A stretch of DNA of 35,622 bases from a virus, in the IMG/VR virus record IMGVR_UViG_3300045912_000521, positions 1 through 35,622 of that record; one strand, given 5' to 3'. Numbering within the stretch: the stretch's first letter is position 1; each line of letters opens with the position of its first letter. The notes below the pieces were generated by a model that was given only the letters and a program-made list of their open reading frames with translations, was not told the origin of the DNA and ran no database searches. This document shows positions 7,989 through 15,710 of this stretch, in pieces. A program made the position numbers and the translations under genes.

Positions 7989-8840
7989 ATGGAGTGGCCA
8001 AAATCACCATTACCCGATTCCGTATATATCCCAAACGAAGCCGATAAGCGGCTGTTTGGCATTGACATTTCGGGGCATCAGGGTGCAATTGACTTTACCA
8101 AGATGTCTCAATACGCCTGGCCGAAAATACGCTTTATCGCTGCGCGGGCAACCATCAATTGGGGCTACAAAGACGCCTGGTTCAAGAGCTACTGGCGTTC
8201 GATCAAAGAGATACTCAGTATTCCTCGTGCAGCCTACGCGGTTTTGTACCCGCTGCAATCGGTCGCAAGGCAGGTTACCAACTTTGCTGAGCAGTTCGAT
8301 GCACAACGATTCGACGGTGACATTGTTGTGCCAGACATAGAACTCGATCATGGCGCAAGCCGGGCGCAAATCACGACTGCTGTGATCGAGTTTACTAATC
8401 GACTGCGCGACTGGGCAAAGAAACCGGCCATCGTTTATTCGCGCTTCACCTGGGTACAACAATTCATGGATTACCAATCTTCAAAAGCGGTCGATTTTAT
8501 TCAATCCGTGCCTTGGTGGATGGCGCAGTACCTGGCGAACCCACCGCGTGAGGATAACCGCGCGCTGGTGATTCCAAACGCGCTGAAAGGACTACGTTGG
8601 AACGTTGTCATACATCAAACCGGCGAGAAAGCGGCAGGATCGCTGTTCGGCGTTTCGAGTGCGCAGCTCGATACAAACCGCTGGCTGCTTGGAGAAGCCG
8701 AATTTAATGAACTTTGGGGCATACCCCGGGATACTGAGTATCCTGGGGCGCAACCGCAACCTATGCCGGTCGATGTGAGCGCGGAGCTGGCAGCGATCCG
8801 CGAGGCGGCGAATAGGATTGAAGCAAAGATCAAGCAATAA
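7989..8840 (+). CDS. Endolysin, glycoside hydrolase family 25 muramidase
   Basis: AGGAG lies 7 nt before the ATG at 7989. The N-terminal GIDISGHQGAIDFTKM motif is typical of GH25 lysozymes. Confidence 0.8.
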   Translation: MEWPKSPLPDSVYIPNEADKRLFGIDISGHQGAIDFTKMSQYAWPKIRFIAARATINWGYKDAWFKSYWRSIKEILSIPRAAYAVLYPLQSVARQVTNFAEQFDAQRFDGDIVVPDIELDHGASRAQITTAVIEFTNRLRDWAKKPAIVYSRFTWVQQFMDYQSSKAVDFIQSVPWWMAQYLANPPREDNRALVIPNALKGLRWNVVIHQTGEKAAGSLFGVSSAQLDTNRWLLGEAEFNELWGIPRDTEYPGAQPQPMPVDVSAELAAIREAANRIEAKIKQ

Positions 8841-9744
8841 CAAATTTACGTTTGTTTTTTGCCGTTCGCCTGGCGCTGTTGCGCAGATCTTCGCGGGATA
8901 GTTTTACGTAACGACGAATCGTTTTATCATCGCGATGGCCAATGCGCTTTTGGATGGTCAACTCTCCTTCACCAGCTCGATACATGTCCAGCACGTGCTT
9001 CCGGCGGAAGGCATGCAACATTACGGGTTCGACGCCAGCCAGTTTTGCCCGATAGATAATGACTGAGCGTAATCCATCATAGGTCAAGCGTTCTCGATAC
9101 CTGCTAATAAAAACTGCATTCGTGTCACATCTAGGGCGTACATTCAAATAGGCTTTTAGGGCTCGTTTTGTATCACGATCAAAGTCAACCGCGCGTGGAT
9201 AACCGCCCTTGCCCTTTTCTACGTACAAAACAGACAGCGGCAAATCGAGAGCGTCCAGGTCCAACATGAGCAATTCAGATGCCCGTAATCCGGTATTATC
9301 CAGCAGCATGATGATGGCTCGATCCCGGATGCCAGATTGCGTTTTATCACATGCTTTGAGGAGTGCCTCTACCGTTTCCCTGGAAACGGGATCAAGAATT
9401 TCTTCGGGAACCTTGGGCGCCTTGATTTTCCGTATTGGATTTTTCCAGTCTTTAGGCTCATACTCAGTATCATACCAGGTGAAGAATGCGTGTACAGCAC
9501 GGAAGAAGGCGTGTACGCCACCTGGCTTATGACCGGTTTTTAGTTGCAGCAGATAGTCACGAATCATTTCTTCGTCGATGGTAAAAATATCGGTCTTATC
9601 GACCCATTGACAGTAATTCACAAAATTTTCAAGTTTTTGCTTGTAAAAACGCAAAGAACCCGGCGAAAGGTTCTCGGATTCTTTAACTTTTATGAAATAT
9701 TGGGTCAGATATTTTATGGAAGTCCGCTGAGAATCGTTTCTCAT
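8830..9744 (-). CDS. int: Tyrosine recombinase / phage integrase (304 aa from the ATG at 9744)
   Basis: It has a SAM-like N-terminal domain, the C-terminal motifs HAFRRKHVLDMYRAG and GHRDDKTIRRYV (catalytic Tyr region) and RASELLML. The ORF-track extension to 9861 runs through a tRNA fragment. Confidence 0.9.
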   Translation of the reverse strand: MRNDSQRTSIKYLTQYFIKVKESENLSPGSLRFYKQKLENFVNYCQWVDKTDIFTIDEEMIRDYLLQLKTGHKPGGVHAFFRAVHAFFTWYDTEYEPKDWKNPIRKIKAPKVPEEILDPVSRETVEALLKACDKTQSGIRDRAIIMLLDNTGLRASELLMLDLDALDLPLSVLYVEKGKGGYPRAVDFDRDTKRALKAYLNVRPRCDTNAVFISRYRERLTYDGLRSVIIYRAKLAGVEPVMLHAFRRKHVLDMYRAGEGELTIQKRIGHRDDKTIRRYVKLSREDLRNSARRTAKNKRKFVIA

Positions 9745-9823
9745 TTTTATAACCGGCCTTTCATTTTGATACCCCCATATATGCCGGTTATCATCGAAAA
9801 AGAGCGCAAAACAACCAAATGTG

Positions 9824-9879
9824 TAGGGCGGGTGGGACTTGAACCCACAAGGTGTCTCCACCGGCGGATTTTAAGTCCG
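9824..9879 (-). other. attP core: the 3' part of a tRNA-Leu(UAA) gene (part of the anticodon stem, anticodon loop, long variable arm, T arm and 3' acceptor strand)
   Basis: The minus strand reads CGGA-CTTAAAA-TCCGC, then CGGTGGAGACACC, then GTGGG-TTCAAGT-CCCAC, then CCGCCCT-A. No matching 5' acceptor strand or D arm lies upstream. It is adjacent to int. Confidence 0.75.
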
Positions 9880-10203
9880 AACACCTGGTTGCTCTATATA
9901 TGGTAAAACGGCTCGTTTTGTGATGAATTTATGGCATATATGGCGGGTTGATTAAGGTTGTTTTTGGGTATCCTCTGTTTCTCACAACCATGATTTCATG
10001 ATTGAATCCCCACAAATACTCAGTATTCAGGGGGATTAACCCGGGTTTAATTCCTGATTCCTCCTTGTTTTAATATAGAACTCTTGTACTATTTTGGTAT
10101 GAAAGTGAGATTATATAGATATCGATCGGGCAGTCTGCGTGCCGTTGCGCTGGAGATTTTCGGCTGGACAATCCAGGTGCTGTGTTTTCGTGTTTTAGAT
10201 TAG

Positions 10204-10599
10204 TCATTTCCGCCTCTTCTTCTCTTCCATCTCCACCAGGAAGCGGATGTAATCCACCGCTATTTGTTTTTTCTCTTCGGGCAGCAGGTCGAGCAGGTGA
10301 ACCAGCTGCTGTTGGTACTCAGTATATGCCGGGGCGGGGGGAAGCAGCCCGGCGGCGCGGAAGACGGTTTCGGGGGGTACACGAAAGGCGTTTGCAATAG
10401 CAACACACAACTCATTTCCTGGGCCGCGAGCGCCAGTCAGGACGCCGTTAATGGCCGCTCTCGTTACTCCAGCTTCTCTGGCTAAATCCGCCTGGGATAA
10501 ATTGCGCTTACTCATCTCGGATTGAAGCCATTCAGAAAAGGGATATTTGTCAGCCATTGCTAACATTTTATCTTCAAGAACGTATGCTATGGTGGACAT
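10204..10599 (-). CDS. XRE/CI-type helix-turn-helix repressor
   Basis: The HTH is LSQADLAREAGVTRAAINGVLTG. It is transcribed divergently from the early operon and lies next to int. Confidence 0.85.
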   Translation of the reverse strand: MSTIAYVLEDKMLAMADKYPFSEWLQSEMSKRNLSQADLAREAGVTRAAINGVLTGARGPGNELCVAIANAFRVPPETVFRAAGLLPPAPAYTEYQQQLVHLLDLLPEEKKQIAVDYIRFLVEMEEKKRRK

Positions 10600-10614: not shown

Positions 10615-10643
10615 TTGACAAATTCAGATACCGATGCTATTAT
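10615..10643 (+). promoter_or_regulatory. Rightward early promoter (sigma70-like)
   Basis: TTGACA at 10615-10620, a 17-nt spacer, then TATTAT at 10638-10643. GAGAGGAG and the ATG at 10690 lie downstream. Confidence 0.6.
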
Positions 10644-14041: not shown

Positions 14042-14218
14042 ATGTACGATGTAACTTTTCTCATCCCGGATTATACAGACTGGCAGGATGAAGAAGATTT
14101 CACTCCACCCGATCCGGACAGCGGAATGCCAGAAACTGAGCGAGACCGCCTATTTGAGGAACTGTGCGCCATGATTGACGCTGGCGCATTTGACCCAGAA
14201 AACGAGATTCTCGCGTAG
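14042..14218 (+). CDS. Hypothetical acidic 58-aa protein, below the ORF-track cutoff
   Basis: The ATG lies 2 nt after the upstream TAA. Translated by hand: MYDVTFLIPDYTDWQDEEDFTPPDPDSGMPETERDRLFEELCAMIDAGAFDPENEILA. Confidence 0.45.
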   Translation: MYDVTFLIPDYTDWQDEEDFTPPDPDSGMPETERDRLFEELCAMIDAGAFDPENEILA

Positions 14219-14233
14219 TGTTGGCTCAAAACC

Positions 14234-14927
14234 TTCAGGCGGCAGGTGCGTGATGATGGGTTCGAGTCCCATTCGCCTGAAACAGCACCTTGACAAGTGA
14301 CATGATCTAAACCAGCCGCCAAAGGGGCAGGATGGAACATCCTGATGGGTGCAAGTCCCATCGGCTGGTTTGGCGAACCTGACCTTGCTAGCGAGGCAGG
14401 TGAAGCCCGTCGCACCCTACACGTGGTGAAAGAGACATGAGCGGCGGGAAAAAGGCAGGGTGACGGCTCGGAGAGACGAGAATACAGACCTGCCTGCAAT
14501 GGCGGGTGCCAAAGCGGATAGAACGCTTGACGAGTGTGGACAGTACATGGTGACACCTCCCACGCCTGCGCCGTGCGGCGTCTGGAACGGCGCAAGTTCT
14601 TTACCATGCTATACGTCGGCTGTGTTGGGAGGCGGGGTCAAGGGTTGAGTCACCAGCCCTTGGCGGTGTAGGGGCAAGGAGTCCCTACAACGGGCGGCAA
14701 GTGAGACCTTTGGAAACTTGCCGGGGGGCGTGACAGCCGGGAGAGACCGGCAACCTTGTACCTTGACATGCGGCAATAGTTCAACAGTAGAGCGGGTTAT
14801 TAAGACTCAGATGGAAGTTCAAATCTTCCTTGCCGCTTTAGCCGGGTGTCCTTTTCACCCGGTGATCCTCCTTCGCAAGGGCGGGCGCGAGGCACATTGC
14901 AAATTATTGGTAGCCAGACGCCCGCCC
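14234..14927 (+). ncRNA. Large unclassified structured RNA locus with three tRNA-like modules carrying T-arm hairpins
   Basis: There is a 730-nt gap between CDSs (14219-14948). I counted 36 G+C in the 60 nt at 14401-14460. At least 11 helices of 5-10 bp were found by hand: 14234-41/14274-81, 14309-18/14362-71, 14394-401/14488-95, 14556-62/14626-32, 14568-74/14587-93, 14637-44/14657-64, 14668-73/14683-88, 14695-702/14716-23, 14736-40/14747-51, 14842-48/14856-62 and 14879-87/14919-27. Strand is inferred from the flanking genes and the T-loop orientation. Confidence 0.6.
14770..14837 (+). ncRNA. tRNA-like element with intact acceptor, D and T arms but no canonical anticodon stem
   Basis: GCGGCAA (14770-76) pairs perfectly with TTGCCGC (14830-36). 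The D arm is GTTC-AACAGTA-GAGC and the T arm is GGAAG-TTCAAAT-CTTCC. The 19 nt between them (GGGTTATTAAGACTCAGAT) cannot form a 5-bp anticodon stem. No CCA is encoded. Confidence 0.55.
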
Positions 14928-14948
14928 AAAAAAATCAGGAGCACTCAG

Positions 14949-15710
14949 ATGGCTATATCAGCAATTATGATAGACCAAAGAGAACCAGATTACATCCAGC
15001 ATCAATTCCCGGGCGCAGCAATAACCCTATTGCAAGCCGGAGACGCCTGGGTTGCGTGTGACGACGGGCATATCCTGTTAATTGAACGAAAGACAAGCGA
15101 TGATTTGCTCAACAGTTTGCGAGACGGCAGACTGCTGGAACAAATTGGACGGCTGGTCAACAACCGCATCAATCAGCAATTGCAGGGGAAATCCCAAACG
15201 TACTGGCCATACCTGGTCGTGACCGGCACACTCAGCCCAGATCACAACGGCAAAGTCTACACCGGACGTGAAACCGGCTGGGCGTGGAACGCGGTGCAGG
15301 GAGCACTATTGACCGTGCAGGAAATGGGCTGTTACGTAGTGCATTGCCCTTCAGATACTGAGTATGGGGGGGTTGTGAATATGCTGGCAAATCGCAAGCA
15401 TGATGACGTGGTGGACATATTGCCGCAAAAACAGCCTATTCCGGTAGACGCAAAGTCAGTTTTCTTGATGAGTTTACCGGGCATCGGCCTGGAACGAGCG
15501 CGGATGATTCTGGAGTGGAGCGGAGGGATTCTGGCTCACGCGATTGTCGGATTAACCGATATGAGCATCAAGTCTCCAATCAGCGATACAACACGACAAA
15601 AAGTACGCGGATTTTTGGGATTGAAAGATAAACAGACGATTGAGTTAAATCTGGATGAACAGGATAGAGAAAAACTGACCATTTTTGAAAAGGAGAAAGC
15701 ACATGTCTGA
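14949..15710 (+). CDS. ERCC4 (XPF/Mus81-type) nuclease with a C-terminal helix-hairpin-helix
   Basis: AGGAG lies 7 nt before the ATG at 14949. The ERK motif is ILLIERKTSDDLLNSLRDGRLLEQ and the HhH is LMSLPGIGLERARMILEW. The 77 codons upstream in the listed ORF lie in the RNA locus. Confidence 0.75.
   Translation: MAISAIMIDQREPDYIQHQFPGAAITLLQAGDAWVACDDGHILLIERKTSDDLLNSLRDGRLLEQIGRLVNNRINQQLQGKSQTYWPYLVVTGTLSPDHNGKVYTGRETGWAWNAVQGALLTVQEMGCYVVHCPSDTEYGGVVNMLANRKHDDVVDILPQKQPIPVDAKSVFLMSLPGIGLERARMILEWSGGILAHAIVGLTDMSIKSPISDTTRQKVRGFLGLKDKQTIELNLDEQDREKLTIFEKEKAHV

Follow-up and report, generated by a model that had tools for sequence, protein, structure and literature searches.

Two modules shaped like parts of a transfer RNA (tRNA), here called A and B, lie side by side in the early operon of a phage that is represented by the IMG/VR record IMGVR_UViG_3300045912_000521, which we analysed over its full length of 35,622 nucleotides (nt; the window). 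The window belongs to a temperate phage or prophage and contains tail genes and a GH25 lysin. A tyrosine integrase (8830-9861) and a cI-like repressor (10204-10599) are encoded on the minus strand. The early operon runs on the plus strand and comprises a cytosine methylase, small open reading frames (ORFs), an ERCC4 nuclease, a RecT-like protein, and a PD-(D/E)XK exonuclease, together with a DnaJ-domain protein, VapE and Prim-Pol primases, the terminase, the portal, and head genes. The sole strong sigma-70-type promoter between 9800 and 15200 is located on the plus strand at 10615-10643 (TTGACA-17-TATTAT). Between an ORF of 58 amino acids (aa; 14042-14218) and the ERCC4 gene, which probably starts with the ATG at 14949, there is a non-coding gap of 730 nt (14219-14948), and A and B occupy its upstream part (Table 1). 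The ORFs overlapping this gap, including one of 178 aa on the minus strand, do not match any Pfam or PHROG family, and the gap has been left empty by the gene callers in a copy of the locus from a metagenome-assembled genome (MAG; locus L026, the L-numbers being the labels of the compared phage and metagenome loci). A scan of the gap revealed no promoter and only one weak terminator-like hairpin (14578-14593). As a whole the gap is unusually structured (z = -4.7). The ERCC4 homologs carry the source names of Anaerolineae or Chloroflexi MAG proteins, and an identical copy of the locus is found on a 91-kb contig of a Bellilinea sp. MAG. The host group of the phage is the Anaerolineae, of the Bellilinea type. 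A blastn search against the GenBank phages did not retrieve the locus. The whole array is otherwise present in L003, L026/L146, and L027, all of which are 100% identical over the gap.

Table 1. Features of the non-coding gap, with positions in the window
Feature	Position	Strand	Basis or context
15-16-nt leader, GTGTTGGCTCAAAAC(C)	14219-14233	+	after the stop of the 58-aa ORF, directly 5' of A
Module A, 48-nt tRNA 'top half'	14234-14281	+	sequence, descriptor, L328 homolog, z = -2.34
Linker with box CAGCACCTTGACAAG	14282-14306	+	sequence
Module B, tRNA-like four-way cloverleaf	14307-14373, core 14312-14368	+	fold, descriptor, position 5' of X
Element X, copy X1	14369-14486	+	model R1, 51 bits, E about 5e-10 (X1 being a seed of R1)
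Structured spacer	14487-14603	+	weak terminator-like hairpin 14578-14593, then AAGTTCTTTA
Element Y, multi-hairpin RNA	14604-14753	+	L328 homology, z = -3.47
Third tRNA-like element, T1	14770-14837	+	Rfam tRNA 44.3 bits, z = -3.38
ERCC4 leader	14866-14944	+	about 80% identical in L024, L031, L032, L149

A and B had been proposed as two tandem tRNA mimics by a sequence-only reading, all coordinates and sequences of which are correct when checked in the sequence. In A, TTCAGGCG (14234-41) pairs with CGCCTGAA (14274-81), and G14242 and T14273 add a ninth pair (G.U). The A acceptor consists of the seven base pairs (bp) CAGGCGG/TCGCCTG with an inner G.U, plus two U:A pairs, and is separated by a 13-nt linker from the T hairpin ATGGG-TTCGAGT-CCCAT (14256-72). 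In B, AAACCAGCCG (14309-18) pairs with CGGCTGGTTT (14362-71), and the 7-bp acceptor CCAGCCG/CGGCTGG is lengthened by four to five pairs. It encloses a 3-bp D-like hairpin (GCC-AAAGG-GGC), an inner hairpin of 6 bp with a GAA loop (AGGATG-GAA-CATCCT, 14329-43), and the T hairpin ATGGG-TGCAAGT-CCCAT (14345-61). The long closing helices of the earlier description are thus present, but because they reach 2 bp (A) and 4-5 bp (B) past the acceptor they are not ideal for RNase P or RNase Z. B is predicted to fold into a closed four-way cloverleaf with a closing helix of 11-12 bp and a minimum free energy (MFE) of -36.7 kcal/mol (z = -4.68), and 0 of 200 shuffled sequences fold as well. The fold of A is weaker, with 8 of 200 shuffles being equally good.

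Both modules have an acceptor that abuts a 5-bp T stem with a 7-nt UUCRANN-like T loop, and in both the two helices stack coaxially over 12 bp under the T loop. The arrangement of the T arm against the acceptor is therefore that of a tRNA, as had been suggested. An anticodon arm (5 bp, 7-nt loop, U33) is found in neither module, its place being taken by the 13-nt linker in A and by the 6-bp stem with the GAA loop in B. A D arm with the U8/N9 connector is absent from A, and B lacks the connector nucleotides and has only the 3-bp stem with its 5-nt loop AAAGG. The earlier statement that there is neither a D arm nor a 7-nt anticodon loop consequently holds for A and for the anticodon loops of both, but has to be amended for the small D-like hairpin of B. 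A CCA is not encoded 3' of any of the modules. To estimate how often such modules arise by chance we used a descriptor consisting of a 5-bp stem, the loop T[TG]C[AG]ANN, and an abutting 7-nt strand that is fully paired to a 7-mer 12-160 nt upstream. On both strands of the 35.6-kb window it has exactly three matches, A, B, and 14770-14836, all on the plus strand and all in the gap. The same descriptor found a mean of 0.115 modules, and at maximum two, in 200 dinucleotide shuffles. Both tandem modules therefore exist, but the pair is not isolated, as the array also holds X, Y, and the third tRNA-like element. The G.U pairs G14242.U14273 and U14308.G14372 and the better folding energies on the plus strand point to structures of RNA rather than of DNA.

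The tRNA detection programs agree with the view that A and B are tRNA mimics, not tRNAs. With default settings ARAGORN predicts 0 genes, and the Rfam tRNA model assigns 15.3 bits to A, against a threshold of 29, and does not match B. The relaxed, intron, mitochondrial, and transfer-messenger RNA (tmRNA) modes of ARAGORN gave nothing credible for A or B. In the relaxed search, which the sequence-only reading had recommended, B is never called, and the region of A only appears as an implausible 'tRNA-Leu(cag)' at 14209-14281. A tmRNA was found neither by ARAGORN, including runs at 70% thresholds, nor by Rfam. At the gathering threshold and with E-values up to 10, the Rfam families matching the window gap, L002, L042, and L251 are tRNA only, plus sub-threshold noise. 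The weak matches of A to the tRNA and mascRNA models align the acceptor and the T arm only. An identity as bacterial Y RNA (YrlA) was rejected because there is no match to the Rfam family and because the acceptor is open, in tRNA-like strand order. A TROVE (Ro60) domain is not encoded in the 30 larger ORFs that were scanned. Literature searches by sequence and by topic did not yield a description of these elements.

The most informative fact on B is its fixed register with element X. The sequence following B is homologous to the sequence following tRNA-Thr or tRNA-like modules in related phages. We built a covariance model of X, R1, from six seed copies, one of which is the X1 copy of the window, so that the match of X1 to the model is partly by construction. 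Six more copies were recovered in non-seed loci, and one more by an independent pattern scan of IMG/VR. X is about 110 nt long and forms a three-way junction of P1 (UAGC/GCUA), a long P2, and P3 (CCCG/CGGG), with the invariant junction nucleotides GCGAAC, GCAGCC, and GGGAAAcAGC. Its 3' part contains GGGUGAC and then a short hairpin with the loop GAGAGA (CTCG-GAGAGA-CGAG at 14467-14480 in X1), which is supported as well. In the alignment of the 11 distinct sequences, which was fitted to the model, 93% of the cells are paired and double changes are seen at 19 of the 20 pairs. Its covariation score of 0.741 compares to 0.227 in shuffles (0 of 500 reach the score of X) and at most 0.112 in slid controls. 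Another helix (GGGC/GCCC), located at the tip of P2, covaries as well, and in most copies it forms an H-type pseudoknot with the neighbouring helix. X1 is the most divergent copy but one, its P1 being weak and the pseudoknot being replaced by a simple hairpin. Searching Rfam with X did not give any match, even at E-values up to 10. In 0.94 Mb of unrelated phage loci that carry another conserved hairpin, the AGCGTAA hairpin described below, R1 did not find X, and X is therefore not simply part of that wider motif.

In all 13 copies of X the 24 nt upstream are made up of a T stem strand of 5 nt, a loop of 6-7 nt, the second T stem strand of 5 nt, and an acceptor 3' strand of 5-7 nt. These are followed by the discriminator, 2-3 nt, and GCGAAC, which means that X starts 3-5 nt past the acceptor 3' strand and 1-3 nt past the discriminator. 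The tRNA position 5' of X is occupied by tRNA-Thr in L251, L256, and L259. The ten non-canonical occupants measure about 47 nt (L233), 48 nt (L249), 57 nt (B), 64 nt (L155 and L236), 66 nt (L257), and 91-173 nt (L227, L279, L250, and L318). Given that the register is fixed in 13 of 13 cases, B stands exactly where a tRNA stands. The acceptor sequences of the X-adjacent modules are mutually unrelated, yet they are paired. For example, L257 resembles a tRNA-Thr whose anticodon stem has been shortened to 3 bp, and both ends of its acceptor show compensated changes. Members of the family have repeatedly lost the decoding half and kept the half with the acceptor and T arm. This order, with X behind a tRNA or the top half of one, is an arrangement at the family level in Anaerolineae phages that had not been catalogued before.

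The origin of the modules is indicated by the content of the same slot in relatives. Between the 58-aa ORF and ERCC4, a canonical tRNA-Thr(UGU) is found in L002, L021, L023, L029/L030, L251-L256, L259, L266, L279, and L329. Other relatives have elements in the slot that combine a perfect acceptor and T arm with an aberrant middle and are mostly not called by ARAGORN. Thus, the slot varies among close relatives between tRNA-Thr, other tRNA-like elements, an extra ORF (L024), and an HNH gene (L001), and because some relatives have protein genes there it is a hotspot for cargo exchange. The ORF in L001 (4300-4885; IMGVR_UViG_3300037484_000319) reads like an HNH-type endonuclease, judged without a Pfam scan, and the one in L024 (733-1050) encodes about 105 aa. 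Such protein genes replace or accompany the RNA modules. The leader in front of A follows the same ORF in L002, L021, L023, L028, and L033. A diverged homolog of A is present on L328, a JGI metagenome contig that encodes an ERCC4 of 81% identity, and there the leader reads GGTGTTTGCTCAAAACC and again stands directly 5' of the module. This homolog (TTGAGGCGG-CAGGTGCGCAAG-ACGGG-TTCGAGT-CCCGT-CCGCCTGAA) differs from A by a compensatory change of U:A to C:G in the T stem and by a G:C pair instead of the inner G.U. The 5' leader, the start of the linker, and the T loop are unchanged. B shares CAGGATGGAA with the 48-nt module of L249, and the hairpins are therefore kept at homologous loci, in L328 for A and in L249 for B, as the sequence-only reading would require. 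A and B have in common the 8-nt stretch TGATGGGTNCNAGTCCCAT, GGCAGG, and the T arm. Their six-pair acceptor cores (CAGGCG/CGCCTG in A, CAGCCG/CGGCTG in B) differ by one swap of G:C to C:G, which is compensated on both strands. A and B are paralogs, with A being the shortened one.

The proposed search for the hairpin in other phages gave 16 exact IMG/VR matches to the 17 nt of the B T hairpin, and in five of these it is the T arm of a canonical phage tRNA-Met, tRNA-Arg, or tRNA-His. The unusual UGCAAGU is therefore a legitimate T loop. The other 11 of the 16 ATGGGTGCAAGTCCCAT matches are located in sequences that ARAGORN does not call tRNA (e.g. L009:7677-7693, L006:200-216, and L007:1072-1088), and in at least one of them (L009) there is a near-complete acceptor and then an encoded ACCA. 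Judging from these matches, non-canonical tRNA-like elements may be more widespread in phages. Taken together, A and B are tRNA-derived top halves, in which the acceptor is stacked on the T arm and the decoding half has been lost.

Derivation from tRNAs could also mean that the modules are neutral relics, i.e. tRNA pseudogenes that decay by internal deletion in a recombination-prone slot and do not have any function. This would agree with the highly variable slot content among close relatives, with the degenerate anticodon and D regions, with a T hairpin in A that is not part of the MFE structure, with a mismatch in the L328 copy, and with the identity of all other copies of the window array. 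We nevertheless regard it as unlikely. Stems are compensated between A and B, between A and L328, between T1 and L033, and between L257 and tRNA-Thr, and the same half of the tRNA has been kept in ten non-canonical X-adjacent modules although their acceptors differ. In addition, the register with X is fixed in 13 of 13 copies, and perfect and even lengthened helices, such as the 12-bp helix of B, are unlike decay.

The close association with X raises the question whether the tRNA-like module and X are one non-coding RNA (ncRNA), in which the tRNA shape would be a handle for folding and stability or for the docking of a protein, as in tmRNA or YrlA. X begins 1-3 nt past the discriminator in every case, and its three-way junction is well supported and accompanied by a pseudoknot and invariant nucleotides (GCGAAC, GCAGCC, GGGAAAcAGC, and GGGUGAC). 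Furthermore, the first nucleotides of X in the window (UUUGG) have their pairing partner in the 5' flank of B instead of in P1 of X, and theta ribozymes hold the same place next to phage tRNAs (PMC10879173). However, by our reading the topology of X is not like that of the hepatitis delta virus (HDV) ribozyme and its junction lengths are not those of a hammerhead. It does not match any Rfam ribozyme family even at E-values up to 10, a partner such as Ro60/TROVE is not found among the ORFs scanned, and A does not have an X at all. We consider a joint ncRNA of this kind rather unlikely. In the comparison with theta and HDV-like ribozymes, X has the position next to the 3' end of a tRNA but not the nested double pseudoknot. 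HDV-like ribozymes, hammerheads, and T-boxes were also rejected as identities of X or its flanking hairpin based on strand topology, junction lengths (again our reading), and the lack of Rfam matches.

The explanation that we favour, and to which we give about an even chance, is that A and B are top-half mimics of tRNA in the early operon, with B being the tRNA domain of an RNA composed of a tRNA or tRNA-like module and X, and that they are likely processed by the host. The part of the tRNA that has been kept is what the end-processing enzymes read, which makes processing by RNase P and RNase Z the most likely mechanism. The RNA of RNase P efficiently cleaves hairpins consisting only of the acceptor stem, T stem, and T loop (PMC11143913). 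In Mycobacterium smegmatis, RNase P cuts the tRNA-like domain of YrlA in vivo, and CCA is added to it (PMC4201824). In the phage, the minimal substrate is retained, the modules are part of an operon and lack a promoter of their own, and CCA is not encoded, and recognition by RNase P and RNase Z is therefore favoured. The absence of an encoded CCA fits 3' processing of the RNase Z type. According to this scheme, A and B, which do not decode, would be transcribed within the early rightward operon. RNase P would cut at the 5' side of the module and RNase Z, or an enzyme equivalent to it, behind the discriminator, where CCA might then be added. The polycistronic early transcript would thereby be severed between the recombination genes and the small ORFs upstream of them, and X would obtain its 5' end. 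Of the roles that had been suggested before, processing fits best to which parts of the modules are conserved. Recognition and cleavage by RNase P and RNase Z are inferred, as is any role of X.

Several observations weigh against the processing of A and B. The first concerns the ends of the modules. An unpaired 5' leader, an unpaired discriminator, and an unpaired 3' trailer are found neither in A nor in B. In A, positions -1 and -2 pair with 73 and 74, and in B positions -1 to -5 pair with 73 to 77, resulting in the 12-bp helix. Pairs at -1 and 73 disfavour both RNase P and RNase Z. Three extra pairs are also present in the related modules of L257 and L155, and none in L249. The second concerns the fold of A, for which the structure with the T hairpin has -16.8 kcal/mol compared to an MFE of -19.7 kcal/mol with an alternative inner pairing, so that the nearest-neighbour model favours the alternative by 2.9 kcal/mol. 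In addition, the A homolog in L328 has one uncompensated mismatch at the third pair of the 9-bp outer helix, and the remaining copies of the whole array (L003, L026/L146, and L027) are identical and hence do not provide covariation. The T loops of the X-adjacent modules in L248 and L250 are outside the UUCRANN consensus. Finally, UUUGG at the start of X is paired with the 5' flank of B in the window, and because A does not have an X behind it any role of A may differ from that of B. A more far-reaching reading, which we consider doubtful, is that the tRNA or top half together with X represents a new class of phage RNAs, in which X would be catalytic or would recruit an enzyme, with a fold unrelated to that of theta ribozymes. 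X would act on or through the 3' end of a tRNA-shaped handle that has repeatedly been pared down to the minimum. In such a class, the acceptor/T-arm unit would be all that X or the host machinery needs.

The modules might instead act as decoys, in which case the mimicked acceptor and T arm would titrate a tRNA-binding factor of the host, for example the CCA-adding enzyme, a modification enzyme, or a defence nuclease that targets tRNAs. Anticodon nucleases are known to be countered by phage tRNAs, the modules are placed in the early operon, and there are several tRNA-shaped units per genome (three in the window, two to three in L033, L236, and L279). The known tRNA-targeting nucleases of defence systems cut anticodon loops, and it is exactly this loop that the modules are missing. 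The fixed fusion to X would remain unexplained, and a defence or anti-defence gene was not recognised beside the modules. We regard decoys as very unlikely.

Temperate phages have 3' fragments of tRNAs at their attachment site (attP), and the gap is located just upstream of the ERCC4, RecT-like, and PD-(D/E)XK genes. It is therefore conceivable that the gap works at the level of DNA as an attachment, replication, or recombination site, or as a cruciform. We regard this as extremely unlikely given that a probable attP is located elsewhere (at about 9823-9890, minus strand), that both strands of the acceptor are present in A and B, which is not the case in an attP fragment, that the T-loop consensus and the G.U pairs exist on the transcribed strand only, and that covariation keeps RNA pairs including G.U. 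An attP fragment was also rejected as the identity of A and B because they are 4.4 kb away from the integrase, which itself adjoins a fragment of a tRNA-Leu. The listed integrase ORF overlaps at its 5' end with this fragment, which is the 3' part of a tRNA-Leu(UAA) and retains the anticodon arm, a long variable arm, the 3' strand of the acceptor, and a T arm with the sequence GTGGG-TTCAAGT-CCCAC. The fragment is probably the core of attP, and the phage would accordingly integrate into a tRNA-Leu gene of its host.

Apart from A, B, and X, the gap contains further structured elements. A scan for sigma-70-type promoters in the linker between A and B did not find any. A box resembling that of the linker, AACCTTGTACCTTGACA, is located at 14753-14769, 5' of T1, and similar CAGAACCTTG boxes are found 5' of tRNA-like units in L033 and L028. 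The spacer behind X1 does not have a homolog among the fetched loci. Element Y has a homolog at L328:1159-1304, the two being identical in 85% of the columns and showing compensatory changes in two hairpins. Its 3' end consists of GGGGGGCGTGACA and the hairpin GCCGG-GAGAGA-CCGGC (14736-14751), and the combination of GUGAC and a GAGAGA hairpin is the same as in X. T1 has a full acceptor, a D arm, and a T arm. Its anticodon arm is aberrant, with either 5 bp and a 5-nt loop or 4 bp and the loop UAUUAAG, which carries A33. Default ARAGORN does not call T1. Only at 80% thresholds is it reported as 'tRNA-Stop(tta)', with an anticodon like that of an ochre suppressor. The T1 homolog L033:2826-2890 has compensated changes in the acceptor and the T stem. 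It does not contain the anticodon loop of T1, and there is no sign of recoding in the phage ORFs. A second copy of GCGGCAA, the 5' acceptor strand of T1, is located 76 nt upstream (14694-14724) and forms its own hairpin with ACTTGCC, and L028 likewise has two alternative 5' strands for a single 3' acceptor strand. The duplicated strands could be alternative pairings or the remnants of a deleted copy.

In the leader of the ERCC4 gene, CCUCC is predicted to pair with the Shine-Dalgarno sequence GGAG across a G+C-rich hairpin (GGGCGGGCG...CGCCCGCCC), and the predicted folds of the window and of L024 both sequester the ERCC4 ribosome-binding site. The predicted pairing suggests translational control of the recombination genes by this leader. 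Copies are located at L024:1254-1334, L031:2914-2994, and L149:2415-2495.

Two wider families were found along the way. One is the 19-nt hairpin GCCGGA-N-AGCGTAA-CCGGC, which is exactly conserved between genes of very diverse phages, including Pectobacterium phage ZF40. It occurs at L002:1922-1940 and in 112 IMG/VR stretches (L034-L145) representing 98 distinct contexts, usually after a variable hairpin with a covarying closing helix and often with ACCA behind it. A tRNA is found within 80 nt downstream in only 5 of the 98 contexts. The hairpin does not match Rfam. It was considered to be the put RNA of phage HK022, and this identity was rejected because it is absent from HK022 even with three mismatches allowed. 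Variants in the window are found at 14460-14480 and 14730-14751, and in Anaerolineae phages the hairpin or its GUGAC...GAGAGA variant is located 5-40 nt upstream of tRNAs or tRNA-like units. The other is a second family of long tRNA-like elements of 76-173 nt, which have a 7-bp acceptor, a variable middle, a normal T arm, and a conserved 5' hairpin, CGGCGUG-GUGGGRA-CACGC (5-bp D-like stem, GG loop), the stems of which covary. They are present at L024:1126-1216, L033:2550-2656, L227:1966-2078, L236:1959-2044, L279:1577-1669 and 1877-2049, L270:2227-2312, L250:1179-1269, and L324:2180-2255. Two of them are called by ARAGORN as odd class-II tRNAs, a 94-nt 'Ala(cgc)' and a 'Ser(aga)'.

In conclusion, the two modules are a real and non-random observation and their reading as tRNA mimics is right. 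As far as sequences can tell, they would be tRNA-like handles for processing or structure. If this is true, the modules represent a natural deletion series of a tRNA, from 72 via 66, 64, 57, and 48 to 44 nt, which would show the part of a tRNA that is needed for a job other than decoding. It would also mean that a temperate phage puts tRNA-shaped signals into its early operon, at which the transcript could be cut by the tRNA enzymes of the host. Element X is a structured RNA with a pseudoknot that is new to Rfam and that is always located 3' of a tRNA-shaped domain (13 of 13). The phages of Chloroflexota are almost unstudied, and any defined RNA element in them is new ground.

Among the known systems, the modules are most directly compared to the minihelix substrates of RNase P, RNase Z, and the CCA-adding enzyme, which likewise stack a 7-bp acceptor on a T stem of 5 bp, are capped by a T loop of 7 nt, and lack the D and anticodon arms. 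Such minihelices are cut efficiently at the canonical site by the RNase P RNA of E. coli (PMC11143913). Unlike these, the phage modules are natural, are part of an mRNA, contain internal inserts (13 nt in A, 26 nt with extra hairpins in B), and have helices that are 2-5 bp longer. The stable RNAs in the tRNA cluster of phage T4 are processed through tRNA-like features and are co-transcribed with tRNAs. The C4 antisense RNA of P1 and P7 and the M3 RNA of phi80 depend on the host RNase P because a part of them is similar to the top half of a tRNA (PMC11143913). There is no homology in sequence or structure to the C4, M3, or T4 RNAs, and in the Anaerolineae phages the top half is a separate domain that is interchangeable with tRNA-Thr and fused to a pseudoknotted RNA.

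Theta ribozymes are similar in being conserved structured RNAs directly at the 3' ends of phage tRNAs, and in 77% of the tRNA-associated cases they are located within +/-1 nt of the tRNA (PMC10879173). In contrast, X is a nested three-way junction with a local pseudoknot and without the HDV double pseudoknot, and it belongs to phages of Anaerolineae, not to gut phages. YrlA is an ncRNA that is also found in phages and contains a tRNA-mimic domain (PMC4201824). Its order is D arm, closed acceptor-like stem-loop, and T arm, and its gene is about 4 kb or less away from that of Ro60/TROVE (PMC4201824), whereas the acceptor of the modules is open as in a true tRNA and the scanned ORFs do not include TROVE. 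With mascRNA/MALAT1 the modules share the cloverleaf with a defective anticodon inside a longer transcript, the ends of mascRNA being defined by RNase P and RNase Z. This is an analogy and not homology, as A matches the mascRNA-menRNA model with 17.7 bits compared to a threshold of 42.5 and mascRNA is eukaryotic. Lastly, tRNA pseudogenes and attP fragments are also tRNA-derived sequences in prophages, but unlike them A and B are kept by compensatory change, and B is kept in a fixed register with X.

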